Below are positions 752 through 47,700 of a stretch of DNA of 64,000 nucleotides, piece by piece. The position numbers and the translations under genes are program-made. Source of the stretch: Naegleria gruberi (Eukaryota); assembly GCA_000004985.1 (NCBI GenBank), contig GG738914.1. The stretch is one strand, 5' to 3'. The notes beneath the pieces were generated by a model. It saw only the letters and a list, made by a program, of their open reading frames with translations, had not been told where the DNA came from and did no database searches. Every line of letters starts with the position of its first letter. The first letter of the stretch is position 1.

Positions 752-1576
752 ATTGATTATTTTTTCCTTAATTCCAAAACATGCAGCAATTTCAGAGCTT
801 ACAATGCTATATTAGTTATGGTATTGAATCTTGGGCGGCATGAGAAAGCATTCAACGTTTGGTTTGATAACTAACCTTAATCCAAAAGAAACAATTTCCA
901 CAGACAATTGAAAATGATTCGCCCTTACTCAAATAATCTCTGATGGCACCACAACAGCAGCGATCAATCATCTACTGATCCAAATTATGGGAATGAGAAG
1001 CAGCAGCAATTGAGGAGATGCAAAATGTCCCCTCGTGTTAAATTCATTATTTTTTACACATTTTGAATCTTTGTTATTTGCGCGGGAGGAAAGGATGCGA
1101 ATGTTTTTGGTCTTAATGTCCAAAAAGGAAACACGCTTGCTGAATATAAAGAGGCAGAAAAGTTCTGAAAAAGATAAGGCTGTCTTGTGGCCTGCTTCGT
1201 TATAGTTGAAACCATACCAAGTGTTCCCCTTTTTTTGTGTGAAGTTCAGAACTGAAGGAGGATGATGTTGTTGATTAAGGTAAACATGACTTTTAATGGA
1301 CCCTCCTCACCTATCAATTCGCCTTAAAGAATCCCTTCTATTTTGTAACTTGCATTTGATTCCATGTGTATGCATATGGATACATTGAAACGACCAAAAA
1401 AAACCCCTCAACTTGGCTGTGCACACAAACAGAGTTGCACCACACGCTTAACCTTAAAGAATTCATCGAAAAACAGTTCATTGTATAGGGTACGAAATGA
1501 ATAACTATCACTCTCTTGTTAAATTAGCTGATAGCCGTCATTTACTTGATGGTTGGAAGGTCTTTTATTGTTAAAG

Positions 1577-1684
1577 GAACTACCACTTGTTTTGGAGAAG
1601 ACAGTACCAGCTCTACCTCTTGTGGTGCTTTTGGAAAATGTGTAGGGAATGATACTTGCTCATGTGACCCCAACGTAGCAATAG
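1577..1684 (+). CDS. upstream exon of the EGF-repeat surface-protein gene (more 5' exons are likely further upstream)
   Basis: This 108-nt open exon (TTCFGEDSTSSTSCGAFGKCVGNDTCSCDPNVAIG) is flanked by AG at 1575-1576 and a GTTAGT donor at 1685. It splices in frame into the 1734 exon across the 49-nt intron 1685..1733. Confidence 0.35.
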
Positions 1685-1733
1685 GTTAGTAGTGCTTGTC
1701 AAACTTTTGCTTATGGTAATCACTTTTATTAAG

Positions 1734-4700
1734 GAACCAAATGCGAAACACAATTGTGTGGAGGTAAATTACCAACAGATCCGAAAGTTTGTGGAGGAAG
1801 GGGTGTATGTTATAATGGAGATTGTGCGTGCACTTTGGATGAAAGATTTGGTTCAACCCAACACGTTGGACTCACTTGTGAAATACCAGTTTGTTTCCCA
1901 CTCCTTGTAGATCCGTACAGACGTGAATACGAATGTGGAGGACATGGCACATGTGTAGAAACCAATATCTGTGATTGCCATGTTGGATATGGTGGTTATG
2001 ATTGTACCAAGACTGGTTTCAAATGTAGTGGAATCAATGCAACAAATTCCAAGGTGTGTTCTGGGCGTGGACAATGCATCGATCAAGATTATTGTCTTTG
2101 TCAATCGGATGATTATGGTGGAGTTGACTGTTCGACACCCAAGTGCAATGGTTTTCTAGCAACAGAAGAGGGAGTGTGCAATGGACGAGGTCAATGTCTG
2201 CAACCAAATAATTGTACTTGTACTTCTGGATTTAGTGGAACAAATTGTGAACTTGATGCCAGTAATCAACAAGTTGAGAGAATAGTGACTTGTTATGGAG
2301 TGCTTTCAAATGATTCTGTGAATGTATGCTCTGGTAAAGGATCTTGTTTTGGAAATGATTATTGCAGCTGTCAGATAGGTTATACAGGTGCTCGGTGTAA
2401 TGAAACATTTTGCTTTGGAGTTTTACAAACAAGTGACAAGACATGCTCTGGAAATGGTGTTTGTTCATCATTGAATACTTGTTCATGCAATAATAATTCA
2501 CCCTTTTTGAGATATGTGGGTGAGGAGTGTGGAATTCTTCAATGTCGAGGAGTTGACTTGGAATTTTACAACTCCACCGATGTGAGAGTATGTTCAGGGA
2601 GAGGAGCATGCATAGATCATTTAGGATGTGTTTGTAATGAGGGTTATTATGGAGAATCTTGCCAAATCTCTTCATGTTTTTCAGTTTTATCAAATAGTTC
2701 ACAAGTTTGTAATGGTCATGGAATTTGTCAAGATTTGGACAATTGTGAATGTTATTCAAATTCTACAAATGGATACTGGTATGGAGATGATTGTTCGGTG
2801 TGTGCTAATTCCTATGAAGGAAATCTCTGTAATCTAAAGAAATCTTGCAACTCTTCCACTACTTGTATGAGCTTGGGTGAGTGTTCAAACAATGATTTAT
2901 GTCGTTGTGAAAGCTCTTTTGATGGAGAGAATTGTGAAGAATGTGCTCTTGGTTATTATGGCCCTTTGTGTGAAATATTTTGCTCTGCAGAATTGAATTG
3001 TTCTTCGAATGGAGTGTGCTCAAGAGATGGATTTTGTGATTGCTATCAATCGAGAGAATTGGGTTATTTCCAATCAGAAAACTGTTCCAAATGCTCGCCA
3101 GGATACTTTGGTAATGACTGCTCAACGTTTGTTGGATCAAATTTCACTTTTAACAATTATGGAAATGAGCTAATTTTGAGAATAATTCCTCCTCTCAATA
3201 TTGACAAGATTCAAACTGAAAATGAATGCAAAACTTTCTTCCCCCCTAGATCTAGATTAAAACTGGGTGGAGAATTCACTTGTCATTGGATAGACGTTTA
3301 CAACGGATATCTTTCAGTGCTGATTCCTCAAAACGCAACAATTATACCAGGAGATTTCTTAGAGTTTAATGTTTATTCATTTGAACAATATGCAAAACCA
3401 GCTCAGTATCGAAATATCACGTCATTTGCAAGTGATGTGAACAAGATTATCACGCAACATGCTGACATTGAAACTGCAACAAGTTTCCAGAAAGGAACAA
3501 CCTTAACCATCAGGGGAAAGAGTTTGATAAGTATTGAAAGAGAAAGAGAATTGTATTATGAGTGGAGTATTGTAAATTCTAACCCTACTATGAATTCACT
3601 AAATAGTCATGTCAGCTCTCAGTCAGGATGGGGTAAATCAGTCATTTCCATTCCAAGTTCTTTCACATCAAGTGTGAACCTTATCAATCTCAAACTAAGA
3701 ATTGCAAATTATTATCAACAATTTGGATCTGAAAAGCAAGTTATCTTACAAGATTTGTCAACTGCCAGCTCATCAGTCAATCAAGTACAAATCAAAATTA
3801 CAACAGCAAGAAATAGATTATACATACTCAATGATATACTTCCTTACAAAATCAATTGCAAATTGACCGTAAACGGTGTGCAAGTCACCAACATTATATC
3901 GAGCGGATACTCAATTGAATGGAGTCTAAGTCCTGATCTTGGAATAGGTTTAGCAAATCTCACCCTTATTACATTGAAACCATATACAAGTGACAATAGC
4001 ACTGTTTTGTTTACATCTGAAGATACTCTGTATTATGATTTCTACAATGTACCTTATACAGTCTTTAATGTGTCAGCTGTTGTTAAGAAAAATGGAACTG
4101 TCGTCTCTAGTGACAGTTTACAAATTCATTTCAATTTATTTGAGCAAAAGCAGTATGGTATTACACTGTCTCGAACACCTACTGATATGACCATTGATGC
4201 TCAATATCCAGCTGTCATATCATTATCCATTCCACCAGAAGTAACAATTTTATCAGTTGAGTGGGCATGTTTTGCCTATCACATGTATAAGGGAAAGTGT
4301 CACGATCAATATCAAGCAATTATTGCTCAAAGTGGAAACAAGACAAGAATTGAACTTCCAAAGAGTGCCATTTTCCTTCATTATAACACTGTAAAATTCT
4401 CTGTAAAAATTACAACCACTTCAGGAGTTGAGTATCGAGATACAAGTTTTTCACCAAGTGCCTCCTATCAAATTCCATATGCAGTCACAGAGACTGCCTT
4501 CTTCAGTTCTGGCTATAGAGGACCATTTAGATTGTATTCTCTTCATGGAACTAAATTCTCTTTCGAATATCGTTTATTTGATAGCACAGAACCATCCATA
4601 GCATCAGCAGGTGATGCTCCAGCCACAACTGGAACAGTTACAGCATATAACGTTTACAGTAACAATCAAATTACATTAAGTGCCGCCAATGGAATAACTA

Positions 4701-5308
4701 CCTACACAGACACTTACTACAGTGGTCCAAATTTGGCTAAATTAGTTAAAGTTGACATGACAAAATTTTCATCTCCAATTTATTTCCAAGTGAAATTTAC
4801 TTACAAAACTTTGGAGATGAATGTTAGACAATATTTAATTATTGGAACAGTTCCAAGAGAAAGGGTGGATATTAATGTGAAAGTTGTTCCATTCGTTCAA
4901 AATCCAGAGTTCAGCAATTACATTTTTCAAGTTTCGAATGATGTAGCAAATTCATTCTATGAAGTAACTGTTTCTCTTTCTCTGAGATATAAGAATGACA
5001 CTAGCATGTCCTACTCATTTGGTTCTCTGTCCATGTTTAGTTTAAATAGAGAGGTAAAAATTGCCTTTCCACCTCTCTTGGATTCGTTTACAATCTATAA
5101 GAAAGTAACCTATTATACGGATTCCTGGGTTGGGTACGAACATGAAGAATCACTTTATATCTACGAAGAAGAAGTTGCCTCATTCCCTGCCTCTCCACAC
5201 AGTTCTGATCCATTCATTAAGGCGATGCAATCAAAAATTAAGATTGCATTCGAAAAGGGATCGAATTATCTTTCTTCAGCTTCATCCATTATGAATTCAT
5301 ACTATTAA
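1734..5308 (+). CDS. large secreted or surface protein: N-terminal tenascin-type EGF repeats followed by about 750 aa of beta-rich Ser/Thr/Asn-rich domain
   Basis: There are about 13 tandem copies of the Cx3-5GxCx4-6CxCxxGYxGxxC module (for example CSGRGQCIDQDYCLCQSDDYGGVDC). The track ORF 1754..5308 begins at a TTG, and the reading frame is open back to the 3' splice site at 1733. Confidence 0.7.
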
Positions 5309-9223: not shown

Positions 9224-10271
9224 TCAACAAGACAACATTTCTGCATCACCTTCTCTCACTAGCAATAACAATCATCAGAGACCAATCAGCACACCCGATG
9301 ATCGTCCAACAACTGTTAACATTCCATCACAAATTAGTCAAAATTCTAACCGACCAGTGGTTGCCCCAATTTCTTCCCAACAGCACAAGGATACAAAGTA
9401 TATTATGGTGGCTGATATTGCCTCTGCAAAGATTTTTGCAAATATTATGCACTGTATTTGTTCCGATAAGAAGAAGGAAGATGCTTGGGTGATTTGCGAA
9501 ATTATGGAGGAAGGAATTAAATTCTACATTCAAGACAAATCAATTCAAGGAGTTGCTAGTATGAAGAGGGATATTTTCCAAAATTATATTTATAATGGTG
9601 CAGCACATGCAAAATATTCATTCGAAATTAATGTACAAATCTTGATTCAATGTTTGATTTTATACGGAGCTAATTCATCACAAGGAACAATTGTGAAACT
9701 TTGTTATCCTGGTGTTGAAAATACATTATCATTACTTTTGGGAGAAGAACGTGTAGTAACAGATTGTAATATTAAGATTAGGCATGGAGCAGAACCTTTA
9801 GATTTTGAATTCAAAGGTTCTGAAGAAACATGTAAAATTGTTTTAAAGAGTGAAGTTATGACTGATGCTCTTTCAGAAATTGATTGGCTTGCAAAGACTA
9901 TGGAAATAGGTGTTGAAATGGATGTCCAAGAGCAAGGTGAGGACCAAGTTGCCATAACTTTACCAAAAGGAAAATTATTTTTCAAAACAGTTGATAATGT
10001 GATTGGATCTATGGATATTATTATTCCAAGTACAAATGAGGGTGTATGTTCCTTTGAGGTAAATCACACCCAAATGAGCGTATTTAAATTATCTCATATT
10101 CAACAAGCTTTAAAGGCTTTACCACATTCTGATAGAGTTTGTATTAGAATGAATGAACAAGGTTTACTACAATGGCAATTCATGGTTCGTGCAACTGAAC
10201 CAATAACCTATGTAGATTACACAATGCTACCAATTGATGCAGAATTAGAAGATACAGATTCCACCTTCTAA
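9216..10271 (+). CDS. RAD1: cell-cycle checkpoint protein Rad1 (9-1-1 clamp subunit) homolog
   Basis: The translation aligns by eye to human RAD1 across the protein. KYIMVADIASAKIFANIMHCI resembles YSLVASLDNVRNLSTILKAIHF; LKSEVMTDALSEIDW resembles LQSEGLREAFSELDM; VCIRMNEQGLLQWQFMVRATEPITYVDYTMLP resembles VSIRTDNRGFLSLQYMIRNEDGQICFVEYYCCP. The first in-frame ATG is at 9216 and is followed by an N/S/P-rich N-terminal extension. Confidence 0.7.
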   Translation: MINQQDNISASPSLTSNNNHQRPISTPDDRPTTVNIPSQISQNSNRPVVAPISSQQHKDTKYIMVADIASAKIFANIMHCICSDKKKEDAWVICEIMEEGIKFYIQDKSIQGVASMKRDIFQNYIYNGAAHAKYSFEINVQILIQCLILYGANSSQGTIVKLCYPGVENTLSLLLGEERVVTDCNIKIRHGAEPLDFEFKGSEETCKIVLKSEVMTDALSEIDWLAKTMEIGVEMDVQEQGEDQVAITLPKGKLFFKTVDNVIGSMDIIIPSTNEGVCSFEVNHTQMSVFKLSHIQQALKALPHSDRVCIRMNEQGLLQWQFMVRATEPITYVDYTMLPIDAELEDTDSTF

Positions 10272-24560: not shown

Positions 24561-27500
24561 TTAGACGGTCATCAGTTCTACATCTTGTGGTTTTGATTTT
24601 TCAAATGTTCGTTTCTTCCTTCTTAAACATCTGACAATTAAAATTGAAATAATAACAATCATGATTCCACAACAGCAGACAACTAATAATCCAAATAATC
24701 CAAACAGACCATACAATGCCAGATTTGAACTCGTTCTTGGTGAAATACTTGTTTCATGTTCTAGTTGTGTTATGGTTGAGTTGGAAATTGTCTTTTCAAC
24801 AACTATGAGTGAAGTGACAGATTTCGAACAATTACAGTAAATTACTGGTGCTGATATTGTCGTGGAACAAGTGTGATTGGACGTAAGAGAGATGATATTG
24901 TCAATTAGAACACATTCAATAGTTGAAAAGACACTTGTTCTTTGTTCAATATTGTCGCTTGTACTTTCAAAAGTATTTTTCACATTGATATTTGAAAAGT
25001 TATACTCATTTCCAAGATTGAATGAGAATGTAATATCTGCAGTAAACTTCTTTTCAACAGAAACAATCTTACTGAGTGACTTGAAAGTTGTTTTAGTCTC
25101 AATTTCTTCCAAATCTGAAATTTTGATTGTTTGAACATTTGATACTTGTTTCAAAGAATAATAAACTCCCAAATGGTCAGTAACTGAGAAGAATGATGCT
25201 TCCAAAACAAGTCTATTAGAAACACTTGTATCAATAGCATCAAATACAAGTGAGCTATTTCCACCATCAGATGTCATTAATTTCTTCACTTGTTGATTCT
25301 TATAACTCAACAGAGAAACAGTTGAATAATGAGAAAGGTTTACACTATAATCTTTCTGACCTACGTAATAACTTCTCATCAACACATTGCTGAATATCTT
25401 AATTGAATCTAACACTCTATACGTGTCTTGCAGTTTACTGTCACCAGTTAATCTAATAATATTGTTAAATAAGCTGCTACATAACTTTTCTACACCCTCA
25501 GCAACTCTGAATTTCGTGTTTTTGGCAGCCATTACCATCAATTTTTCAGTCAAGTTGAATAACTTTTCGAATGGAAGTGAATTAATTGAATCACAATTTG
25601 AAGCCAAAGATTCCAACCCAAAAGAATAAACTCTAAAGTGAATGTCTGAAATCAATTCTAGAGGATTTCTCTGATTTAATCCAAGTATCATACTGTCAAG
25701 CATTTCATCTCTCAATTCATAAGCAATACCCGCTTCGTTTTCAGCCAATTTTCTTGATGTTATCAAATTGGAAATCATTAACTCTGATGTTCTTGAAATA
25801 GTTGCAGAATTGAAAACCAACTTGGCACTATCACTTGGCAGAAGAGATGCAGCCTTTAATTGCCAAACTTTCACTTTGTTTTTGATTTGTAACATTGAAG
25901 AGGCAGTGGGTGTTTTAACTTCCACTGATTTGATAAACTCAACTGATGCACCAGTATCCAAATCAACAATATCCACAAATGTATCCATAACATTTGAACT
26001 AAATGGAGAAGGAAGATAGGAAGCAAACTTCTCACCCAAATTGTAAAGTGGAATTTTAGTTCCTGACTTGTCATCAATGAACCCAAATACAAAATCAATT
26101 GATTGTTCAGCATTTTGGCATCCAGGACATGAGAACGAGAATTCAGTTTCCAATGCATAACCATATGATGGATTAATATAACACAAACATGATTTTGGTG
26201 ATTTGACAATTTTGAATTTGTACGAGAATCTTGATGAAAGATTATTTCTCCTGTCTGAAACTTGGAATTCAATTTCATACTCTCCATCTTCCAGTAACTC
26301 AAGAAGCGACAGAATTAATGATGAAGATTTAGATGGTTGAGTAGACATTTTAGAGATCATTGAATTAGTCAATGAATTACCATTAATTGACCACTCTCTG
26401 ATCATATCCTCTTCATCAGTTTGTTTTTCATCTCCTCCCAAAATAACTGATAATTGTAAACTCAATACTTCATCTTTGAGAACTTTGAATCTGTTTGGAT
26501 AAACAGAAATTAAACTTATCACTGGTGGAATTAACAATTCAGTGTTTGGATAATCAATGTCAAGAGATTTAGAAATGGAACGTAGTCCTTTCTGAATGCT
26601 CAATGTCAGAGAAACTTTTGAAAGACTTCCTTTAGGAATTTGACATGTCGATGATTTGGTAATGGCATAATGTGTTAAAATATTGGAAATTGTTGAATCT
26701 TGACATGCTTGATTTGAAACTCTATCAAAACATGACCAATTCCATGAATCTGAAACTGAATCTATATTATCAGGATCTGAATTCTCAACTATCACATCAG
26801 CTTGATTGGTATTCAAACTAGAAACATAAATATTTAGTAATAAATCTCTTGATTTGCTTGAAAGTGGAATTAAAAGTGTTGCGTTCGAATTTGGATTGAA
26901 TTTTGAAATTGCTTTTACACCAAATGAATAAGATTCATCCCCATTTGATAATATTTCTGTAATAACCAAATCATTATTTGAATCTATTTGATAATTAATA
27001 GTGGATGGACCTGAGAGTTTCTCCCAAATATAGTCAAATTCCCTGTTATCAAAATAACATGAAGGTAATTCAATAGATTTCTTAACAATTATTGGGAGCG
27101 AACCCTTTTCAATATTGGTGAGTGACATTTTGTTTGTAAGCAATGAAAGAGTAGGATTTGGAACAATTGATTTGATAATTTCAATAAATTTCTTTTCACT
27201 CCTTGCGCCACTGAGAGAACTTTCAGCAATCAAGCCAAAGACATAGCTTCCTGAAATCGAAATACTATTTGAGGTCAAAGTTGAATTGAAATCACCAAAA
27301 GAAACCTGTTGCAAGTTGAAATTTGAATCAGGAGATGATTCAATAGACCAAATAAATTTCACAGGTTTCAAATCACCACAATATGATCCAGAAGCATCAA
27401 TTGCAATTTGTTCACATGGACTAATTGTATTCTTAAATGAAATATTGATTATTGGTTTCACAGGGTTGTTGGAGGGAAGCAGTAACAGTGAGATATATCT

Positions 27501-30500
27501 TGGAATTGGGGTGTAAATAATGTCCAAACCATTAATAATTAAAGAAATATTAGAATATGGAATTATAGAATATTGACCTCCAAGTTCAATAAAGAAATTT
27601 CCGTCTTTCCAATAACAAGATGGATTTTTACCCAATTGAGAAAAACTTTTCTCATTCACTACCTTGCTACACTCTAAAACTCCATTGGATATGACAATAG
27701 AAGTGTTAAAATGAAATTCCAAAGTATTCCCCAAAGAGTTGAATTTTGGTTGAGATGAAACAGATAAAAAACATCTACTTCCAAAATAACCAGACTCACA
27801 TTGACAATAATCTTCACTCAAACAAGAGCCATGTCCGGAACAAACGATAGCATTGGATTGCAATATGCCAAAACAAGAAACTTTCTTATTTTCACAACTT
27901 ACCCCTTCATAAAGAGAATTACACTGACACGAATCATTTGAAAAACAATTTCCATGTCCACTACAAACTCTGGAATCATTTGCTTCATGCCCAAAACAAA
28001 AACTGATTGGTGGAGATGTGGAAATAGTACTAGTTGAGTTAGTTGTACTAGTAGTGCTATTATTTACATTACTACTCGTGGAATTATTAATTGTACTGTT
28101 GACCGAACTAGTCGAGTTTTTGTTTAAAGTTGAATTGTTAGAAATTGTACTATTGAAAACTGTTGAATTAGCAATAGTGTTATTATTATTGTAAACAGTT
28201 GAATTAGTTGACATTGTATTGTTAAGATTTGTACCATTAACATTTGAATTTGTGACATTATTAATAGTGTTATTCCAAACAGTAGTTGAATTACTTGCAT
28301 CCACAGTAGTATTAGAAATGCTTGTTGAATTATTATCAATGCCTGTTGTGGCATTATTATATGAATTATTAAAATTAGTTGTATTTGTAAATGTAGAATT
28401 GTCAACCGATCTATTGTTACTAACTGTTCCATTGCTACTACCAATAGTATTATTACAATAAACACCAATGGTACAATTGGAAGTTGAATTAAATGCTGTG
28501 TTATTGCTTAAATTGGTAAAGTTAGAAGAATTGTCAACATTTGTGGTATTACTTAATATGGAACTATTTTGGTTTGTTGAATTATTCAAATCTAGTGATG
28601 AATTATTGAAAATTGTTAAATTGCTATTGGTAGAATTATCAAAACTGGTGTAATTATTGGCTGATGAATTATTAGAAATTGATGTATCGTTACCAAAATT
28701 TGAAACATTCAAATTTTGATTATTACCTGCTGTTTCATTACAATTCACACCAAAGTAATTTTGATTGCAATCACATAAATCCTTGCCAACACATGTTCCA
28801 TTTCCATTACAAACATTAGCGTCAGTAGAAGGGAAATCAAAACAGCTAATCACACTGCAATCTTCACCATAGTGATTATCTTTACATTTACAACTATTAA
28901 AATCAACACATTCTCCGTGTCCATTACAAACATTAGACTGATTTGACATTATTCCAAAACAAGTAGTAAGAGAGCAATCTTCAGCATAATAATTATCATA
29001 ACATTCACAAAAATCATTCAATGTACAATCACCTCTACCAGAGCATGAAGCATCATTATTGTAAAAAATACCAAAACATGTAAAATTTTGTAAACAATAC
29101 CCATATCTGTCTCTTTCACACACAACATTGTAAATATAAATACCATTAGAATTTGAAAAAAGTATATCTTCATCCTTAGTAAAACTGGAAGTTCCAATAG
29201 AAAAGGATTTTAAATTTGAATTTGTAAAATACTTGTCCTCGCTTGGCGAATACCAAAAATATGGTACAACCTCACCGTAATAACTCCCACCAACAAAGTC
29301 TGAAAGATGAGAGTTTGATGAAGTAGTAAAAGCAGTTTCACTGTCAACAGTTCCATTTCCAATGACGTCAATAACAAAGCCATCTGCACGAACTGCCTTC
29401 TTAATTAAATTTCGGTTAGACAGTTTTACAAAGTAAATATCTCCATTTGAATCAATTGTCCAACCATTAGTACTGATAGGATGATTTTCTATTGGAATTT
29501 TCTTTGCCTTACCTGCAATTAGAGTTGTGTTTGTTTTGTAAACTCCTTGATTACTTGATATTATTAACGTTCCATTTCGTAAGGTTATTGATAATGGCTT
29601 AAACGGCATTTCATAGATTGGTTTGAATATATTTGAAGAACTGACTTGTAAAATACCATATGCTGTACTAACACCTCCCTTTCTTTCAAAGGCTACTAAT
29701 ATTTCATTATTTTCAGTGCATAAAATAGCTTGCACCAAGAATGTATATGTAAAGGTCCCAGGAGGGGGTATTAATGATAAACTTATGCTAGTTGTTAGCC
29801 TGGTGACTAGATTATATTTTGTAAGTCTGTAGGAATCCTTAACTGAATATGCTATTGTGGTGTCATCACTCATCATACATAGATACATGGTTCCACTCTC
29901 TGTCAATACTTTCAAGTTACTATCTGTTTGTGGGTCGTAATCAAATATGGAATAACCACTAGAGTAATAAATATGACCAGTGGATTTTCTGAAAGTGATA
30001 TCATCTATAGTGTTTGTTGTATTTAAAACTTTTCTAACAAATGTTGAATTAACATATTCAAGTAAATAGTTTTTGTAAACAAAAAAAAGGTTGTTTGAGA
30101 TTGGATGAAATCCCATAGGTTGATCTTCTAATCCAGTGACAATATCGTCTGCAGGCGCAGGAAAATCAGTAAAATCAGGGCTATCTTCTTTTTTTCCAAC
30201 GAGTGGTCTAACCTTGTTTTGATTGTCAATATAAGAAATCAAATATTTGGTTCTTAATATCAAATTTCCATTTTTAGGATTTGATGTGATTTGATGTAAT
30301 GAGTCGAATTCAACATTCATTGCATCTGAATTCAAACCAGAAAGACTCATTCCTTGACTATACCCAACACCCAGGACACATTTAATTGTCAGATCAGATA
30401 AACTAACTTGTATAATTCTAAACTTATTGTCACTGTAATAGATAGAGTTGTTCAAATACTGAATATACATTAAATTGATAATAGAGATATCCAATGAAGA

Positions 30501-31973
30501 TTGCCCATCATATTGATAGCCATTTGTTCCTGAAATATTGCCCGCAATTAGTTTTAAAGATTTTGTGTAAATATTAAACTTGTTAATAAAGCAATTAGCA
30601 TTACCATTAGCGTCTGCTACAGAATTAACAATATATAAATCCTCCCATGTTTTTTTATCAGTAACTACTTCAGAAATTGGCATTTCAAAAGTTATTAAGG
30701 GATTCAAAAGTCCAGTCCTTTCAGACAATCTGAATATTGATTTTTTATCAGTTGAAAATAGGATAATGTCTCCATTTCTATATGTTTTGATTGGTTTCAG
30801 TCCTAATACAAACTGAAAACCGTATGAGTAAGTCGAATACGAAAAATCAATTGCTAATTTTCCAACAATAGTTTTGATTTTTGAATCCTGATTGGCCTTT
30901 ACAATATTCCCACTGAATGAAATGTAATAAGTAAAGTAATTCTCCTTTGGAACGATTTTCATTCCCTTAATAGAAGGTAATGAAACATTTTGCAAAGTTT
31001 GGTCAGTTCTTGTAAAATCGAGAGACTCTCCAACTCCAAACAATAACACAATTCTTCCATCTTTTGAAATCTTTCTAATAATGGTATCATCACTGAAATA
31101 AATTTCACTATCAATAACAGCCATCAACTTGGGAGAATTAAGACATGCGTTTGTGGCAAACCCGTCATAAGTTACGTTAAACGTGCAACTGTCTTTCAAA
31201 CCAGATACCTTGTAAAATCTACCATTCTCAATCTTCATAATTACATATATATTATTAATAGAAATAGTAAAATAAACGGTACCATTGCTTGCAAGAATGG
31301 AAGTTGGTGTCTTAATGTCGGTTGAACTCGCAATGGATCCATCAACAGGTATGGTCGTTGATACAGCATTAGATCCTGCAATTGTAACAATACTTCCTGT
31401 TGTATTCAGCTTTCTAATCTTGTTGACTTCAATAGTGTACACGTTACCCATTTCATCGTAGGTAAAGCTAACTACTGAGAATTGAAAAGAAGCAACTGTT
31501 CTCACTCTATTATCAACCTTGGAAATTACTCTCAATTTAAACGAGGAATCAACATAGGTACATTCTCCTGTTAAGGATGTTGTAAGATACTTGACCGTGG
31601 CCGAAACTTGTGTAGTATCAACTCCATCACTTGATGATGTTCCCTTACCCAAGTAAATACTCACAGTCTTATTTGCCTCGAAATATCTTCTTAAAATTGT
31701 TCCATCACGGAAAACAACGTCTCCACCCTCCATAATACATATTTCGGTGGGTGTTATTGATACCAAGTTATAAGGAAGTGGTGAGGCTGTTTTAAAATCA
31801 ACAGGATTTACAATTGCTTTCTTCGTAGACAAGTAATTCGGAATAGCCTCAACCATACAAGTCTGAAGAAGAAGAATACAACAACAACACAAACTTGCAG
31901 CCACCGCAACAAGAAGCGCCTTAAAAAACAATGGTGATGGCGCACAAAGGGAAGGAGCCTTAATCATCATCAT
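24561..31973 (-). CDS. giant type-I surface protein (2470 aa): signal peptide, beta-rich N-terminal region, tenascin-type EGF repeats, an Asn/Ser/Thr-rich sequon tract, a second EGF cluster, a long beta-rich stalk, and a C-terminal TM with a short basic tail
   Basis: The ORF begins MMMIKAPSLC with a hydrophobic leader. Two EGF clusters share the Cx3GxCx5CxCxxxYxGxxC module. The C-terminus reads LFGLLVVCCCGIMIVIISILIVRCLRRKKR. Confidence 0.75.
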   Translation of the reverse strand: MMMIKAPSLCAPSPLFFKALLVAVAASLCCCCILLLQTCMVEAIPNYLSTKKAIVNPVDFKTASPLPYNLVSITPTEICIMEGGDVVFRDGTILRRYFEANKTVSIYLGKGTSSSDGVDTTQVSATVKYLTTSLTGECTYVDSSFKLRVISKVDNRVRTVASFQFSVVSFTYDEMGNVYTIEVNKIRKLNTTGSIVTIAGSNAVSTTIPVDGSIASSTDIKTPTSILASNGTVYFTISINNIYVIMKIENGRFYKVSGLKDSCTFNVTYDGFATNACLNSPKLMAVIDSEIYFSDDTIIRKISKDGRIVLLFGVGESLDFTRTDQTLQNVSLPSIKGMKIVPKENYFTYYISFSGNIVKANQDSKIKTIVGKLAIDFSYSTYSYGFQFVLGLKPIKTYRNGDIILFSTDKKSIFRLSERTGLLNPLITFEMPISEVVTDKKTWEDLYIVNSVADANGNANCFINKFNIYTKSLKLIAGNISGTNGYQYDGQSSLDISIINLMYIQYLNNSIYYSDNKFRIIQVSLSDLTIKCVLGVGYSQGMSLSGLNSDAMNVEFDSLHQITSNPKNGNLILRTKYLISYIDNQNKVRPLVGKKEDSPDFTDFPAPADDIVTGLEDQPMGFHPISNNLFFVYKNYLLEYVNSTFVRKVLNTTNTIDDITFRKSTGHIYYSSGYSIFDYDPQTDSNLKVLTESGTMYLCMMSDDTTIAYSVKDSYRLTKYNLVTRLTTSISLSLIPPPGTFTYTFLVQAILCTENNEILVAFERKGGVSTAYGILQVSSSNIFKPIYEMPFKPLSITLRNGTLIISSNQGVYKTNTTLIAGKAKKIPIENHPISTNGWTIDSNGDIYFVKLSNRNLIKKAVRADGFVIDVIGNGTVDSETAFTTSSNSHLSDFVGGSYYGEVVPYFWYSPSEDKYFTNSNLKSFSIGTSSFTKDEDILFSNSNGIYIYNVVCERDRYGYCLQNFTCFGIFYNNDASCSGRGDCTLNDFCECYDNYYAEDCSLTTCFGIMSNQSNVCNGHGECVDFNSCKCKDNHYGEDCSVISCFDFPSTDANVCNGNGTCVGKDLCDCNQNYFGVNCNETAGNNQNLNVSNFGNDTSISNNSSANNYTSFDNSTNSNLTIFNNSSLDLNNSTNQNSSILSNTTNVDNSSNFTNLSNNTAFNSTSNCTIGVYCNNTIGSSNGTVSNNRSVDNSTFTNTTNFNNSYNNATTGIDNNSTSISNTTVDASNSTTVWNNTINNVTNSNVNGTNLNNTMSTNSTVYNNNNTIANSTVFNSTISNNSTLNKNSTSSVNSTINNSTSSNVNNSTTSTTNSTSTISTSPPISFCFGHEANDSRVCSGHGNCFSNDSCQCNSLYEGVSCENKKVSCFGILQSNAIVCSGHGSCLSEDYCQCESGYFGSRCFLSVSSQPKFNSLGNTLEFHFNTSIVISNGVLECSKVVNEKSFSQLGKNPSCYWKDGNFFIELGGQYSIIPYSNISLIINGLDIIYTPIPRYISLLLLPSNNPVKPIINISFKNTISPCEQIAIDASGSYCGDLKPVKFIWSIESSPDSNFNLQQVSFGDFNSTLTSNSISISGSYVFGLIAESSLSGARSEKKFIEIIKSIVPNPTLSLLTNKMSLTNIEKGSLPIIVKKSIELPSCYFDNREFDYIWEKLSGPSTINYQIDSNNDLVITEILSNGDESYSFGVKAISKFNPNSNATLLIPLSSKSRDLLLNIYVSSLNTNQADVIVENSDPDNIDSVSDSWNWSCFDRVSNQACQDSTISNILTHYAITKSSTCQIPKGSLSKVSLTLSIQKGLRSISKSLDIDYPNTELLIPPVISLISVYPNRFKVLKDEVLSLQLSVILGGDEKQTDEEDMIREWSINGNSLTNSMISKMSTQPSKSSSLILSLLELLEDGEYEIEFQVSDRRNNLSSRFSYKFKIVKSPKSCLCYINPSYGYALETEFSFSCPGCQNAEQSIDFVFGFIDDKSGTKIPLYNLGEKFASYLPSPFSSNVMDTFVDIVDLDTGASVEFIKSVEVKTPTASSMLQIKNKVKVWQLKAASLLPSDSAKLVFNSATISRTSELMISNLITSRKLAENEAGIAYELRDEMLDSMILGLNQRNPLELISDIHFRVYSFGLESLASNCDSINSLPFEKLFNLTEKLMVMAAKNTKFRVAEGVEKLCSSLFNNIIRLTGDSKLQDTYRVLDSIKIFSNVLMRSYYVGQKDYSVNLSHYSTVSLLSYKNQQVKKLMTSDGGNSSLVFDAIDTSVSNRLVLEASFFSVTDHLGVYYSLKQVSNVQTIKISDLEEIETKTTFKSLSKIVSVEKKFTADITFSFNLGNEYNFSNINVKNTFESTSDNIEQRTSVFSTIECVLIDNIISLTSNHTCSTTISAPVIYCNCSKSVTSLIVVEKTISNSTITQLEHETSISPRTSSNLALYGLFGLFGLLVVCCCGIMIVIISILIVRCLRRKKRTFEKSKPQDVELMTV
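27990..28720 (-). repeat. low-complexity Asn/Ser/Thr-rich coding tract (dense N-x-S/T sequons) within the 2470-aa gene
   Basis: The translation here is dominated by NxS/NxT tripeptides (NSTNSNLTIFNNSSLDLNNSTNQNSS...). This tract also generates spurious ORFs on both strands in the track. Confidence 0.6.
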
Positions 31974-41702: not shown

Positions 41703-44700
41703 TTACAATTCATCTTCTTCAATTTCGATTTCTTCTGTAACAAGGGCAATATCCTTAGGTTTTGGTTCTCGTTTTTGGTAGTGATCATAGGAGGTGGCAG
41801 CACTGTAAGATCTTGGGCTGTCAATGGAAGATTCTTCATCAGTCATTGTGGAATCATTTCTGTTTCTTCCTCCTCTTGGTGACATAGCAATTCTTGAACT
41901 GAGTCTTGACAATGTATTATTGTAAATTTCCACATCCAAATTGTGAGATAATTCCATTTCCTTATCTTGTTTTTCTAGTTTGTCTGTGATCTTGGAAGCT
42001 TTGGAAGTGGTAAACTTTCTTTTAACTTTACCACCTTTTTGTTTAGCCAATCTAATCTTCTTTTTGATACGTCTCAAGTTTACCAATCCTTCCATAATAT
42101 CTCTAATATTCTTACTATTATCCTCATCACTAGAATCAGAATCAGATTCAAAGAGAGTCAAATTAAATTCTACCTTTCTCTTTGAAGTGTTCATTCTAGC
42201 ATAAGCGTCAACATCATCTGGAATAAAGAGTGGATTCTCTTCAACTACCCAATCATCATGGAATTCTTCATAACTATCACATAATGGATTCTCAATAATA
42301 TTCCACTTTTCTTGTGCTTCCTCATCTTCCAATAGTACAACCTTAGTCATTTGAGTTAACGGATTACCAAATAGTTTGGAATATAATGCTTGGAGTGACT
42401 TGGCCTTTTCTTTACCGTACTTTCGTTCCAATTCTCTTCTGGCCAATCTTTCCTTCTTTCTGTCCTTCTTTCTTCTGACATAGATATCATAAATAAGCAT
42501 TCCCAAAACAAGCACTATAGATACTACAATAACAATGGAGGCAATCCATTCACAAAAACCACGCAGGGTTTCATTTCCTTTCCAAGCACCATCATCAACC
42601 AAGAAAAGTAAACCAAAGAACAAAACCAATTCAGTACACACTAGAGAAACCCATTCGAGGAGATTGTGGAATTTGGTCTTGAATGGCACAAACTGTGATT
42701 GCAACAGGAAAGCAATGAATACAGTAATCAGAGCAAAGGTAACAGTTTGAAGAGGAAGTAAGAAGGTGTTGAAGATGGAGAGAAGCAACTTTCTGAAGGT
42801 AATAATAATTTCCCAATAGAAGAGTCTCTTCTTGAATCTGTTTTGGATAAATTTGAATCTCAAATCGAAATCTTTAACTTTCTGTAACAAGACAGGATTC
42901 TTTGGCTTCCATTTGAGTTCGTCCAATTCAGTCTTTGTCAAATCTGGGTTGTGTATCAACAAATCCTTTCTAACTTCCAACTTCAAATGTTTCTTATAAA
43001 TATAGAGCGAGAGGAAGAACAAGATTGAACCGAGACCAAACACGACAAAGTAAATAATAGCTAGAGGTAACATGGCAATCCACTGAGGATCCAAAATACT
43101 GATATCTGGACTCGATACAAGTGCACAAGTATTGTCAGGTTGAGGTGTACAATAGAAAATGTCACTGGCTTGTGAAATGATAAAAGCAAAGGTAAAACTG
43201 AGGAACGCAGTGTAGCCATTGATCAATTGATTGAAGAATACTTTCATTTGTTTGGCGCTCATCTTTTCCTTAAGAAGCCAAACTAAGAAGTTTCGTAACC
43301 AAACAAACAAATTGATAAACCAAATCTTCCAATCATTGAGATTTTCAATGATCCTTCTCTTCAATCTTTGTTTCTTGTTGAGCTTCTTTTCTTCTTCCTT
43401 CTTTTTCAAGTATTCCACTTCATCAATATCGTTGTGATATCTGTACGGTTCACGATATTCAAATTTCACGTGATGTCCAAACTTGCTAACAATAACATTT
43501 CTCAAAATTCCCAAAATATACAACAGCACAAACAGTACAAATACATAAACTGGGAAGAGTGAGGTCAGATACCATTTGGTTAGTTGGTTAATGTCTGGGA
43601 AAATACACTTTGGATTGATAAAGTCAGTATTGAAAAGTGTTGCAGAACTGGCCGTATAGGAATATTCCATTACAACAGGCCACTTGACGTTATATTTGGT
43701 GAACATGGCAACAACTTGGAAGAATGACAGTGCAATAGAAATAGAAGCCAAATGTGAAAGTTTGATACTACTGATCAATAAGAAAATTAAAACTACAACC
43801 AACATGAGTATACCAAATCCAATCAATCTCCAGATAGCATCGTCTCCACATTTAGTACAGAAACCATTGAATTTGTAATAACCAACATCACAAGCTCCAC
43901 ATTTTCCTGATATATATCCAACTGTACAATTTTCAATTGAAAAACCACCACAAGCTTCAATAGGAAGACAACTGTAAACAGTGTAATTGTCATGTTTTCC
44001 CATCCAGTAACCTTTCTTTGGATATGGATGTATGTTGTTTCCAGCGTTACAAATCATAGATTGCTCATTACATTTTACGCAATAGTCATCCAACTTCTTT
44101 GGGCTGGGATTGAGATAATAATTATTTTGACAAATACATTCAGTGAGTGAGGTAGAGGCCTTTTGAAGTGTTAAAGTGTTTACCGGACAAGAAATACATT
44201 CCTTGGCTTGGAAAGATGATGAATAAGTATTAAAATCACATGGAATACAAGCATTACTGTCATTGATTGGTTTGTAGAAACCTGGCTTACATTCTTGACA
44301 TACATCTCTGTAAGAGGAAGCTCCGTAACCAGCCATACATGGAACGTATTCAAACATTGATTTGGCATCACTGGAAAGTTGTAGAGCATTGGTGTTTGAT
44401 GAGCCATTCTTAAATGCAGCATATGTGAATCCTTCTCCATTCAAAGAATACCACTCTCTTCTATTCACAGATAAGGAAATACTTGTCAAACCTTTCTCTC
44501 TCTTTGGAGCTATACACATGATAATATTTTCACTCATCACAGTACAAACATCTGTTGAAATAACAGTTCCAAACATTGCCCTAATCTCTACAGTTGCCAA
44601 TTTTGAAATATTAACTACTTGTGTAATACCCTCAACTTGGAGAGTAACTGGAATGTCATCATAGGTCCAAGTCTTCTTTGGATTGACGTTTAAAACTTTC

Positions 44701-47700
44701 AATCTATCATAAATGTATAAATTATATGAATTACTATACTCTGATCGAGAATTATATAATTGCACATAGAAGGAAGTATCTGCAGAGGTTATAATCTGAG
44801 AAGGAATTTCACAATTGATCTCAGAGGAAACTGAAGTTAATACTTTGGCTACTCTAACAATTTGGTTACTAATACTAAATTGACAACCAACAGCAGCGCC
44901 AAGATTCTCACCTACAATTGTTACACTTGTTGGTATGTTTCTTTCAAGGAGGTATGGTTGAACATTGATAATACGTGGCTCGTCATATTTGCTCTTAATC
45001 AAGATTGGCAAGGAGAATGTATCAATTCCATTGAATGTAACAGTAAATGTTGTTGCAAATGGGAATTCTAATATGGAATAATCAGGAAGTGTATTATTCA
45101 ATGGTGGATAGAGAATGAAAAGTGAAGAGTCCACACATGTGAAAATATCACTTGTTGACAATCCAGAACCTTGATAGAAATTAATAATATTCTGCAAAGA
45201 AAGAGTCAGGGATGAGAATGATGAGCTTGTGGCAATTGTGAATTGCAAATTATTGGTATTGCCACAAGGCAATGCTTGACTAAAGTGTAACATTAAACTG
45301 TTTGGTACAATTGTAAGGATTTGATTCGTCTGAACAAAATCAGGTGTAATATTATCAATACTTGTCAGTTGTCCACCTGAACTGTAAGTTAAAGAGTTTA
45401 CAGTATTGAAGGATGAACCAGAATCAAATGACAATAATAAATCGTAGGAACCAGAAGGTGCATTTCCAGGATTACTCAATTCTACATAGGTTGAGGTAAC
45501 AGAGACCGGTGAGAGTCCTATTTCTTGACCTAAAATAGCTCTTCTTGTAGATTTGAGTTGAAGTTTACCTTGAATCTGTGAGATTACCAATACACTTGAA
45601 AAACTTCCATAAACTTTGATAGTAGGTGTTGATGAAAATACTAAGCTTGGAGAAATGCTGCTGAATGTTGGCATTGGAATTACATTGACAGTTAATGAAC
45701 CTGCTTGGATTGGCTTTTGTTGAGAATAAACAACCACAGAATAAGTTCCTGTTGTAGATGGAGCACTATCAAGACAAAAATCAAGACCACTAATAGAGCA
45801 TGAAGTTAGCCAAGTATCTTGTTTGTTGATTCTCAAGGATACTTGTAAAGGTAGCAATGGAGAATCAACTGAAACACCACTGATTGATACCTTAATTGCT
45901 GATCCAGAAATTGCCTGAGTTGGAGAGATGCTTATTGATGCCAAAACAGCAAAATCTAAATGCAAATTGAAATCTCCAAACGAGTAACCATTATCTAAAG
46001 ATAATTGGAAAGGTATTCTCTTTGGTAGTTGTCCTCCAAATAAGTAAGTGAGTGGAACAGTTGTGAATGTAATCTGATTAGTATTTTGGTTGTAGGTACC
46101 ATCAAGAACTTTGCTATTGATATTATCATTGAGCTTGATCTTTGGTTGTGTATTTCTTGGTAAACCAAGGACATTGATACTGACCAAAGTGGCAGAATAA
46201 ACATCAACTGTTGCAGGAGAGGCAGAACCAATAGATCCAGACCATGAATAAATTTCAACAGTTTGACTGAGAGTAATGTACGAGCTGAAATCATCAAAAC
46301 TAAAATCAACAAATAAGAATCCAGGATTGCTTGACAAGATTGTTGGCAAAGGACAATCAACTTGTGTGGCTGACTTTTTAACACAACCATTTGTTCCTTC
46401 ACTCACCACTAATTGGCTGACTGAACTTCTGTACTTGACAGCAAATGTAACGAGTCTACTGTCAAGAGTAGAAGCAAATGCTATGGACAAAGTACCAGAG
46501 TTTGATGTCTTGCTGGCATCAATAATACTTGGAGAAATACTGGAAACAGCTGAAGGTTTGATTGCTGTGAATAGCGAGATCAGTGTCATACTTGGGAAAC
46601 CATCAATGTAGAGAACGACATAGTACTGCTTGGATGTGCTACTCACTTGTGATTGAACATTTGGTGTAAGGCAGTTCAAGAATTTACCTGAGCTTGTGAG
46701 CAATTGGCAATTTTGGAGTGGTGTCATTATCTTCTTATTGTCAATGAATAATAATGTGAATGAGTATTGACTCATCCAATTACTATTTCCACCATGATTT
46801 ATGGATTTAATGGTGTCAAACATATTTGAATAGGTGAGTGTAACATTTTGTCCTCCATACACTGTGCCGTAAGGTAAACTCAATGGGAATCCAACATCCA
46901 AAACTAATATTTTCTTAATATCAGTAATAAAATTACTGGTTCCATCTATTACTAATTGTACAGAGCTAAATCCCGACTTGGTAGTTTTAGCAAGTTTGCA
47001 TTTAACAACAGTGGATGATATAATGATAGCACTAGTTTGATATGATGTACCGTCATTATCATTTTTAACATAGCAATTGAATGAATATGTAGTATTGAGT
47101 GAATATTTTGACAAGTAAATTGTAATGTAACTATAATCTCTAATACTAATGTCTGAAGTGGTCAGTACAAATGGACTGATCTTTTGAACTGTCAATAAAT
47201 CATAAACTACCAAGGAGTAGGTTTCTACTTGGGTGTTAGATTGAGAAATTTCCTTGTTAGCCACATTCATATAGAAGGAAGTAACAAATGGAACAGATTT
47301 CTTTGGTATGTAATTGGTTGGTGGCGAAAGATTATCAACTGGGCCAACATAAGGTGCCACAAAGTATGGTGCTGAGCTTTGGTCAATTCCAGATAAGATG
47401 GAAACGGATTCATCCTTCATCTGAACTGATATTTGCAAATTCTGTGGACTGAAATCGTAAGGAATAACAAATGTTCCATTGTTGAATACCGAAGCAGCGA
47501 CCATATCCATATTATTTCTGTTTGCAATTGGAGTAGGAACTGGCAACACTGGAATCTTCTTGGCATTTGTTAAGTATTGATAGTTTGAACTTTGATCTGG
47601 AATTCCAAGACGAAGTTCTAACATTTTGTTAACCTTACTAACAGCAGTATCTGTGGAAAAGACACAACTCAAAATATCACTTCCAACAATCTTTGTTACG

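Follow-up and report, generated by a model that had tools for sequence, protein, structure and literature searches.

The sea urchin protein suREJ1 is built of EGF modules, a lectin-like part, an REJ domain, a juxtamembrane GPS-type motif, a single C-terminal transmembrane (TM) helix and a short tail. Teneurins are type II proteins, whose N-terminal domain is cytoplasmic and whose TM helix precedes the EGF repeats. Tenascins are described as chordate proteins (PMC11401434, PMC1578592). Certain 7TM-RGS proteins of Naegleria fowleri, which bear GPS motifs, lectin domains and EGF repeats, have been called 'reminiscent of adhesion GPCRs' (PMC9283941), and FMG1B is a ciliary glycocalyx protein of Chlamydomonas (PDB 9gos; bioRxiv 10.1101/2024.09.28.615573). 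REJ and GAIN are used here as defined in Pfam PF02010 and PMC3321182.

The DNA analysed, referred to as the window, is a stretch of 64,000 nucleotides forming part of a 233-kb scaffold of Naegleria gruberi NEG-M. Three long genes were found where an earlier note had placed them, all within 55 kb of each other and together occupying 25,084 of the 64,000 bases (39%, against about 40% claimed).

1528..5308, plus strand: gene 1, exons from 1528 with the stop codon ending at 5308 (1577-5308 in the earlier note)
24561..31973, minus strand: gene 2, single exon, 2470 aa
41703..55326, minus strand: gene 3, three exons, about 4,480 aa

The public entry for gene 1 is a "predicted protein" of 1236 aa (P0003), and gene 1 is an ordinary, already catalogued protein. 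No public protein appears to exist for genes 2 and 3 in the collection searched. In the reading that we favour, with a probability of roughly 0.7, gene 1 is an intact three-exon gene that most likely encodes a secreted EGF-stalk protein, an ectodomain-only offshoot of a heterolobosean family. Full members of that large family carry EGF modules, a post-EGF module, PKD-like and REJ regions and a GAIN/GPS region, with a single TM helix in some and a 7TM-RGS module in others.

The EGF core C..G.C..C.C..C occurred 20 times in continuous reading frames, every copy lying within genes 1-3; none was found elsewhere in the six frames of the window or in 20 shuffles. A 21st copy emerged only once the intron at 1685-1733 of gene 1 was removed, yielding 11, 5 and 5 modules in genes 1, 2 and 3 respectively. 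Pfam EGF_2 exceeded its cut-off in all three (gene 1, 1e-21; gene 2, 5e-18; gene 3, 1.6e-5, 25.6 bits where 22.1 are required). The claim that the three genes share one EGF module therefore stands for EGF_2-type modules, but not for the strict GY motif given for them, which was scarcer, with 3, 1 and 0 copies in genes 1, 2 and 3. The array of gene 1 additionally matched EGF_Teneurin (2.3e-20) and EGF_TEN (66.1 bits, just over the cut-off of 65), and these Pfam matches confirm that the modules, called tenascin-type in the earlier note, are of the tenascin/teneurin type. Like those of tenascins and teneurins, the modules are about 31-40 aa long, contain six Cys and lack a calcium-binding consensus. 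In contrast to tenascins and teneurins, the genes encode neither FN3 repeats nor a fibrinogen globe, and neither a YD shell nor a toxin domain: no FN3 or fibrinogen-related Pfam match was obtained with the three proteins (E <= 0.01) or their stalks (E <= 1), and the TEN_NHL match of gene 2 was borderline at 26.4 bits, just below the cut-off of 27.1, with no YD or toxin match, while gene 1 gave no NHL, YD or toxin match at all. Membrane orientation is also opposite to that of teneurins, gene 2 starting with a signal peptide and having its TM helix near the C-terminus, and gene 1 having an N-terminal signal-like segment only. Filing the genes as tenascins or teneurins was rejected because the defining domains are absent.

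The structure of gene 1 on the plus strand was resolved as follows.

1262..1279, plus strand: candidate exon 1, ATG ATG TTG TTG ATT AAG (MMLLIK), then a GTAAAC donor
1296-1367, plus strand: alternative exon 1, in frame, with a GTATGC donor
1528..1684, plus strand: exon 2, signal-peptide hydrophobic core (LIAVIYLMVGRSFIVKG) followed by EGF module 1 except its end
1685..1733, plus strand: intron, GTTAGT...TTAAG, 49 nt, phase 1, seen in the sequence and used by P0003
1734..5308, plus strand: exon 3 up to and including the stop codon, encoding the end of EGF module 1, modules 2-11 and the stalk
1591..3121, plus strand: the 11 EGF modules of tenascin/teneurin type, with 72 Cys
3137..3388, plus strand: post-EGF module, about 85 aa, leave-out HMM E = 1e-7
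3389..4447, plus strand: stalk middle, beta-rich, with weak colinear likeness to the PKD/REJ-type stalks of paralogues
4448..5305, plus strand: C-terminal region, common to P0007 and P0008 only, no hydrophobic segment

Removal of 1685-1733 was re-derived and gave the same 1236-aa product as P0003. The 1684/1734 junction restores the pattern C-x-C-x5-G-x2-C-x4-C, completing EGF module 1, and aligns across with 12 paralogues with a gap of no more than one residue. Splicing of the exon ending at 1684 to 1734, on which the earlier note had staked its case, is thus supported by both the public model and the paralogues. The note had the gene extending 5' through at least two short introns; this holds for the intron at 1685-1733, but not for the position of the second. 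An exon start at 1577 was rejected because it would require a 17-nt intron (GT at 1560 to AG at 1576), the exon being open and paralogue-like up to 1528. Paralogues (P0092, P0112, P0052, P0074 and others) align in frame with positions 1528-1677 through their signal peptide and initial EGF module, supporting exon 2.

The TAG at 1525-1527, which stands in good acceptor context, is read from the sequence as a putative 3' splice site, and we infer that an upstream mini-exon must supply the start of the signal peptide. All ATG...GT exons splicing in phase 0 to 1528 were enumerated. Joined to exon 2, the preferred candidate gives MMLLIK followed by LIAVIYLMVGRSFIVKG, a signal-peptide-like N-terminus of 23 aa, and the revised product would have 1249 aa; its GTAAAC donor has no G at +5, although all three remaining donors in the window do. 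P0003, the public model, begins at the ATG at 1549, has no signal peptide and is probably without the first exon of the gene.

Beyond the EGF array, pairwise BLASTP of the three stalks gave no significant match and profiles were therefore needed. A post-EGF module of about 85 aa with the pattern FxFNxxGNxL..C..LG..C..L.I.L..ATI.PGD.L.F and two invariant Cys was detected in genes 1 and 2 with an HMM built without either gene. The module recurs in about 20 heterolobosean proteins, including P0004, P0009, P0025, P0069, P0071, P0080 and P0094, and no Pfam family matched it in any of 14 members. In gene 3 it was absent at E <= 10 with the same HMM, and comparison by hhalign gave E values of 0.3-0.5, equal to those of a reversed-sequence control. 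The first 100 or so residues of the stalk had been described as alike in all three genes; judged by these sequence profiles, genes 1 and 2 share the first 85-100 aa or so and gene 3 does not. Whole-stalk hhalign of genes 1 and 2 returned a probability of 96% (E = 1.5e-9 over 375 columns), which fell to a weak match (E = 0.0018, probability 15%) when the first 100 aa were left out.

Beyond the module, gene 1 continues for about 640 aa of fast-evolving, beta-rich sequence in which no REJ, PKD or other Pfam domain was found. An AF2 model of the stalk from 11 sequences was poor (pLDDT 53, and below 40 in the C-terminal region), and Foldseek with this model returned generic beta-sandwich chains only (complement C3, cadherins, Sap S-layer). 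A deep phmmer search against 1.84 billion representatives recovered the stalk itself and P0007 only, with no orthologue detected outside N. gruberi among them. Such a stalk may reflect fast divergence or even decay.

Hydropathy analysis revealed no TM segment or hydrophobic C-terminus in gene 1, the N-terminal signal-like segment being the only hydrophobic one; a GPS motif is also absent. On this sequence evidence the product, lacking a membrane anchor, is probably secreted, and it would be no receptor by itself. The paralogues P0007 and P0008, on other scaffolds, end at an equivalent position, likewise without a TM helix and with colinear C-termini, and P0007 carries a normal signal peptide. 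The product of gene 1 would most likely be secreted, disulphide-rich and N-glycosylated, consisting of a signal peptide, 11 EGF modules forming a rod, the beta module of ~85 aa and the stalk of ~640 aa.

Gene 2 encodes, in order, a signal peptide, an NHL-like region of about 930 aa, three EGF modules, an Asn-rich sequon spacer and two further EGF modules. The post-EGF module, a PKD-like region, REJ, a GAIN-like region, one TM helix and a tail of ~20 aa follow.

27516..27761, minus strand: post-EGF module, aa 1405-1486, leave-out HMM E = 1.1e-8
25878..26786, minus strand: REJ domain (PF02010), aa 1730-2032, 62-65 bits against a cut-off of 25
24759..25901, minus strand: GAIN-like region, helical subdomain followed by beta subdomain
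24798-24917, minus strand: four-Cys GPS-like motif at the end of the GAIN-like region, CNCSKSVTSLIVV
24630..24722, minus strand: TM helix, by hydropathy

The search for REJ suggested by the earlier note was thus positive in gene 2 (Pfam E = 4e-17 with the complete protein, 8e-18 when just the stalk was searched) and negative in genes 1 and 3. REJ is also present in P0123, an orthologue fragment from Willaertia magna with 53% identity. The GPS-like motif is degenerate, without the H-L-T/S cleavage residues, and hhalign of the GAIN region against relatives with a canonical GPS was not significant. In layout, gene 2 resembles suREJ1: EGF modules, a propeller/lectin-like region, REJ, a four-Cys GPS-type motif, a TM helix and a tail. 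It differs from suREJ1, PKD1 and PKDREJ in that its N-terminus contains neither a C-type lectin nor LRR/WSC/PKD repeats, that PLAT and an 11-TM channel-like module are missing, and that its GPS is without the catalytic His and Thr/Ser; gene 1 differs from all three in having no membrane-proximal parts. PLAT gave no Pfam match in genes 1 or 2, whose TM counts of 0 and 1 compare with the 11-TM module. RGS likewise gave no Pfam match in either gene, and with 0 and 1 TM helices no seven-TM module is present.

Several relatives (P0004, P0009, P0043, P0041 and P0059) possess a canonical GPS (CxCxHLT) immediately before one TM helix or a 7TM-RGS module, the latter being present in P0041 and P0059. 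Like genes 1 and 2, the heterolobosean EGF-REJ-GPS proteins have EGF_2/EGF_Teneurin arrays and many have the post-EGF module; gene 2 further agrees with them in that REJ follows the module and a GPS-like motif precedes the membrane. Gene 1, P0007 and P0008, unlike the full members, stop before the GPS and TM helix and have no Pfam-detectable PKD or REJ. Gene 2 differs from the Naegleria 7TM-RGS proteins in its single TM helix, its GPS without HL-T/S and its lack of a 7TM-RGS module, and would represent a one-TM member of the family with a non-cleavable GPS.

Gene 3 begins with a signal anchor or peptide, an N-terminal domain, one EGF module, a LamG/pentraxin-like domain and four further EGF modules. 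Next come the Ig-like repeats, about 27 in number, and a Cys-rich region of Ephrin_rec_like type; at least seven TM helices and an acidic tail complete the protein.

55326-54942 (or -54963), 54830-53794 and 53747-41703, minus strand: the three exons of gene 3
44349..52571, minus strand: repeat array, about 27 divergent units of ~100 aa with a Cys pair in every one
42471..44321, minus strand: Cys-rich Ephrin_rec_like/TNFR-like region, then the multi-pass membrane domain

Splicing lengthened the LamG match from profile positions 54-150 to 10-150 (E = 1.8e-16). The repeats, Ig-like or IPT/TIG-like, were delimited by Cys-pair periodicity and unit alignment; they exhibited no BLAST self-similarity, weak matches to TIG_2 and plexin and, in the PDB, weak antibody V-domain-like matches only. 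The Cys-rich region matched Pfam PF07699 (3.4e-8) and EphB2 in the PDB (3e-4). No relative of the membrane domain was recovered in a search of 5.8 billion proteins, where even the domain itself gave no match, in JGI metagenome contigs or among PDB sequences. The plan is like that of FMG1B, a chain of ~100-aa Ig-like repeats followed by a Cys-rich domain and a multi-helix membrane domain, the repeats within either protein hardly resembling one another in sequence although each keeps a conserved Cys pair. Gene 3 differs from FMG1B in its additional LamG and EGF domains, and no sequence match to FMG1B (9gos_A) was obtained with its repeat region, repeat profile or membrane domain.

The earlier note had treated genes 1-3 as one family of EGF-plus-stalk proteins resembling adhesion or phagocytosis receptors; on this view all three would go back to one ancestor of the same plan. 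The CSG(R/H/N)GxC core common to their EGF_2-type modules, the long beta-rich regions that follow the EGF repeats in all three and their location inside 55 kb are consistent with this proposal. It is nevertheless unlikely, since gene 3 is without the post-EGF module by HMM, hhalign and BLASTP, its repeats contain Cys pairs and are of Ig-like or TIG-like type, its C-terminal part is a multi-pass domain as opposed to one TM helix in gene 2 and none in gene 1, and shuffling has placed EGF modules in more than 140 proteins of differing architecture. A family defined by a shared module and a shared stalk is thus largely refuted for gene 3, which is a separate giant multi-pass surface protein with only shuffled EGF_2 modules in common with genes 1 and 2; on present sequence comparisons its repeats are unrelated to their stalks. 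The part of the proposal concerning adhesion or phagocytosis receptors fails for gene 1, which has none of the membrane-proximal features, and elsewhere the role is suggested by analogy. More speculative is a set of four propositions which, taken jointly, we consider possible but doubtful: that the post-EGF module is a single FMG1-type 'beta chunk' Ig-like repeat; that the heterolobosean EGF-module-PKD-REJ-GAIN/GPS cassette is truly homologous to the PKD1/suREJ ectodomain; that gene 1, P0007 and P0008 are spun-off soluble ligands or decoys for membrane-bound paralogues; and that gene 3 is an unannotated Naegleria equivalent of FMG1, a ciliary-coat protein of algae. The profile of the module matched the FMG1B repeats weakly (E = 0.0013; best single repeat, E about 1). 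Homology of the cassette to PKD1/suREJ, if true, would place the REJ-GAIN unit near the root of eukaryotes.

Gene 1 could also be a decaying or truncated copy of an REJ-type receptor that has lost its signal peptide and GAIN/TM parts and yields no functional product. Its 1184-codon ORF is uninterrupted in AT-rich DNA (36% GC), which argues for function, and the Cys pattern is preserved in 11 of 11 EGF modules. Decay would account for the missing signal peptide of P0003, the in-frame stops at 1495-1497 and 1525-1527 that break a signal-peptide-like reading, the loss of Pfam-level REJ and PKD signal and the lack of a known orthologue outside N. gruberi; against this, the second of these stops stands in a good acceptor context with in-frame mini-exons available upstream, and P0007 and P0008 share the TM-less plan on other scaffolds, P0007 with a normal signal peptide. 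We regard decay as quite improbable. Attachment to the membrane through a missed downstream exon or a lipid anchor, making gene 1 a true receptor like gene 2, is suggested by its closest full-length relatives (P0004, P0009 and P0025), which have a GPS and one TM helix, and by the imperfect gene models of this genome, genes 2 and 3 seemingly having no public protein. Yet the roughly 600 bp between the stop (5308) and the start of an LRR protein gene at 5913 contain no GPS-like or convincingly hydrophobic ORF, the C-terminus is polar and therefore no GPI-type signal, and both paralogues stop at the equivalent position, which makes such attachment very improbable indeed.

Under the favoured reading of gene 1 as an intact, secreted EGF-stalk protein, it may serve as a soluble or matrix partner, not as a receptor. 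Proteins of the type of genes 1 and 2 would sit on or around the amoeba surface, mediating contact with or adhesion to substrate, prey or other cells. EGF-rich, GPS-bearing Naegleria receptors have already been published and nothing here should surprise a specialist; literature searches returned no paper combining 'Naegleria' with 'REJ domain' or 'Acrasis kona' with 'EGF'. Genes 1-3 belong, as ordinary members, to a large expansion in Heterolobosea. The window holds three different Naegleria builds of large EGF-bearing surface proteins, among them its two largest genes, which are apparently without a protein entry, and a post-EGF module without a Pfam model, and it indicates that REJ in combination with GPS-type juxtamembrane regions occurs far outside animals.

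The earlier note had described three genes of the window as sharing one EGF module, followed in each by a beta-rich stalk whose first ~100 aa look alike, and as resembling adhesion or phagocytosis receptors. These are gene 1, on the plus strand with a long ORF ending at 5308, and two larger genes on the minus strand.

24561-31973, minus strand: gene 2, a single exon encoding 2470 aa
41703-55326, minus strand: gene 3, three exons, open frame 4481 or 4488 codons long

The 1184-aa ORF of gene 1 (1754-5308) is 100% identical to P0003, its public model of 1236 aa annotated as "predicted protein", which starts at ATG 1549 and removes an intron at 1685-1733. The same splice was re-derived from the window and yielded a 1236-aa product with the N-terminus of P0003. 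The intron is GTTAGT...TTAAG (49 nt, phase 1); left unspliced, the frame meets two stop codons. Its removal completes EGF module 1 (CSCDPNVAIG joined to TKCETQLC), and the resulting junction aligns with a dozen paralogues with a gap of at most one residue. The gene therefore continues 5' of the long ORF through this intron, as had been proposed. An exon boundary at 1577, also proposed, was ruled out: it would require a 17-nt intron (GT at 1560 to AG at 1576), and the frame is instead open, with paralogue-like sequence, as far as 1528.

The stretch of gene 1 up to 1528, LIAVIYLMVGRSFIVKG, aligns with hydrophobic signal-peptide cores in five paralogues (P0092, P0112, P0052, P0063 and P0074), where these peptides lie immediately before EGF module 1. 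An in-frame TAG at 1525-1527, preceded by a pyrimidine-rich tract, reads as a putative 3' splice site. Every in-phase ATG...GT mini-exon was enumerated as a possible exon 1, and two were credible.

1262-1279, plus strand: candidate exon 1 (MMLLIK), donor GTAAAC, 248-nt intron
1296-1367, plus strand: candidate exon 1, donor GTATGC, 160-nt intron

The former produces a classical 23-aa signal peptide and its start compares with that of gene 2 (MMMIK); the donor of the latter is closer to three other donors in the window. Lack of a signal peptide, as in the public P0003 model, is implausible in a protein carrying 77 cysteines and 11 EGF modules, and we infer an upstream exon 1. In the public model of P0008, an N. 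gruberi paralogue of gene 1, residues 1-65 form a non-hydrophobic segment of ~65 aa before EGF module 1, hence no signal peptide; like P0003, this model may be mis-annotated at its 5' end.

Pfam matches to the gene 1 product included EGF_2 (1e-21), EGF_Teneurin (2e-20) and EGF_TEN (66.1 bits, cut-off 65), with similar EGF matches for gene 2 and a weaker one for gene 3 (EGF_2 on the EGF region by itself, 25.6 bits, cut-off 22.1). A relaxed form of the EGF motif occurred in 11, 5 and 5 copies in genes 1, 2 and 3 respectively, with none elsewhere in the six-frame translation of the window and none in 20 shuffles. The strict GY form is rarer (3, 1 and 0 copies). A gene 1 query matched more than 140 proteins from Naegleria, Willaertia, Acrasis, Percolomonas and environmental contigs, in which EGF arrays are joined to NHL, RCC1, lectin, kinase, REJ, RGS and other domains. 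Because EGF arrays combine so widely, their sharing is weak evidence for common gene ancestry.

Pairwise BLASTP among the three post-EGF regions gave nothing significant. Genes 1 and 2 are linked through P0004, a relative with 15 EGF modules, PKD, REJ, a canonical GPS and one transmembrane (TM) helix, whose residues 860-930 match both stalk starts. A leave-out HMM of this ~85-aa segment, the post-EGF module, was built without gene 1, its paralogues P0007 and P0008, or gene 2. It recovered the segment where expected in gene 2 (1.1e-8) and in gene 1 (1e-7), whereas gene 3 was not detected even at E ≤ 10.

3137-3388, plus strand: post-EGF module
27516-27761, minus strand: post-EGF module
P0004 residues 858-934, and ~20 other proteins: post-EGF module

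The module carries two invariant cysteines in the pattern FxFNxxGxxL...C...LG...C...L.I.LG..ATI.PGD.L.F, and none of 14 aligned members matched a Pfam family. Comparison of whole-stalk profiles by hhalign gave 96% probability (E = 1.5e-9, 375 columns); with the first 100 residues removed, a weak colinear signal persisted (E = 0.0018, probability 15%; controls 0.3-0.5). The likeness described for the first ~100 aa therefore holds for genes 1 and 2 only. The gene 1 stalk had no Pfam match, and among 1.84 billion representative proteins it matched only itself and P0007; P0008 is a third, weaker paralogue.

Gene 2 begins with a signal peptide and ~930 aa containing a borderline teneurin-type NHL match, followed by three EGF modules, a spacer, two EGF modules and the post-EGF module.

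27999-28736, minus strand: gene 2 spacer separating its two EGF blocks, Asn-rich, of low complexity and dense in NxS/T sequons

Such sequons number 79 in the full-length product, and the spacer probably forms a mucin-like linker with heavy N-glycosylation. Weak PKD-like matches follow, then the REJ domain that had been suggested for a domain search, which is solid at 62-65 bits (cut-off 25). The protein closes with one TM helix and a ~20-residue tail. REJ and TM are separated by a region rich first in helices and then in strands; it ends in four cysteines that align with the canonical GPS (CxCxHLTxF) of P0004, P0009, P0043, P0041 and P0059, with K-S-V in place of the cleavage triad. The GAIN domain is understood here as defined in PMC3321182. 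Comparison of this region by hhalign was not significant. The AF2 model was weak (pLDDT 55), its best Foldseek match being a GAIN-containing fragment of CELSR1 (E = 3.4e-3); support for a GAIN fold is suggestive only. Gene 2 is a conserved gene, given a fragmentary protein of Willaertia magna that matches it with 53% identity across 763 residues.

Gene 3 is a separate kind of giant surface protein. Support for its 46-nt intron at 53748-53793 comes from the Laminin_G_3 match, which covers profile positions 10-150 once the exons are joined and only 54-150 before. LamG and four EGF modules are followed by ~2,750 residues in which BLAST found no self-similarity. A cysteine pair recurs there every ~100 residues, roughly 27 times (44349-52571, minus strand), and the aligned units resemble Ig or IPT/TIG domains. 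The protein then continues with Cys-rich Ephrin_rec_like repeats and seven or more hydrophobic helices, and finishes in a long acidic tail. The membrane region (42471-43844, minus strand) had no relative in a search of 5.8 billion proteins, and none in JGI metagenome contigs, Pfam or PDB sequences. FMG1B, of the Chlamydomonas ciliary coat or glycocalyx, whose structure was solved recently (PDB 9gos), combines 34 Ig-like repeats (a single disulphide apiece, self-identity ~22%) with a Cys-rich domain and a multi-helix TM region. The overall plan of gene 3 is closely parallel (Cys-pair repeats, Cys-rich region, multi-helix membrane domain); no sequence homology to FMG1B was detected. The post-EGF module profile gave 11 weak matches on successive FMG1B repeats (E = 0.0013), with the common motif C...L.V.L......PGD.I.V. 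The N-terminal part of the AF2 model of the gene 1 stalk, of moderate confidence, has strands and a short helical insert, consistent with the published description of the FMG1B repeat. The match is marginal and is offered as a lead only.

The window (G+C 31-38%) also encodes actin, Rad1, ankyrin and LRR proteins and a reverse-transcriptase/RNase H element. Since the products of ORFs 20255-21478 (plus strand) and 36463-38007 are identical to F-box/LRR protein XP_002670519 and histone deacetylase XP_002670521, respectively, both from one 233,110-bp scaffold of N. gruberi NEG-M, the window is assigned by sequence identity to nuclear DNA of this free-living heterolobosean amoeba. The F-box-bearing LRR gene adjoins another at 21879-23033 (plus strand) in tandem. 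The 735-aa ORF at 7016-9223 (minus strand), with reverse-transcriptase (RVT_1, 1.5e-21) and RNase H (4e-17) domains, is a retrotransposon-like element; with its 5' part it overlaps ORF 8907-10271 (plus strand) upstream of the Rad1 match, which begins only at residue 167. An actin gene without introns (23221-24354, minus strand; 377 aa; Pfam Actin 1.6e-146) follows the gene 2 stop downstream at a distance of 207 bp; the protein collection searched had no exact copy of its product. ORFs 12330-15044 (904 aa) and 59670-62579 (969 aa), both on the plus strand, had no Pfam match at E ≤ 0.001.

P0003 was the only match to the gene 1 EGF query from the 233-kb scaffold. Neither the exact 2470-aa product of gene 2 nor an N. 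gruberi protein covering its stalk was present in the collection searched, and the gene 3 membrane-region search returned no N. gruberi protein, the query included. Genes 2 and 3, the largest two in the window, thus seem to have no public protein entry in that collection.

Gene 1 is an intact gene, already catalogued but uncharacterised. Its only hydrophobic segment is N-terminal. Because the C-terminus is polar, ~600 bp separate the stop from the next gene, and P0007 and P0008 end colinearly and likewise without a TM, its predicted product is best read as secreted. Overall, the finding is genuine though ordinary; what it chiefly offers is the corrected 5' structure of gene 1, a domain for which no model existed, and two large genes seemingly without public protein models. 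Gene 1 is one of a small group of anchor-less EGF-plus-stalk proteins in N. gruberi, a clade that derives from a wider heterolobosean EGF, REJ and GPS family. Among the membrane-bound members of that family are 7TM-RGS proteins and one-TM forms, of which gene 2 is an example. The 7TM-RGS proteins of N. fowleri have been discussed as adhesion-GPCR-like (PMC9283941), and by analogy a role of these proteins in contact or adhesion would be reasonable.
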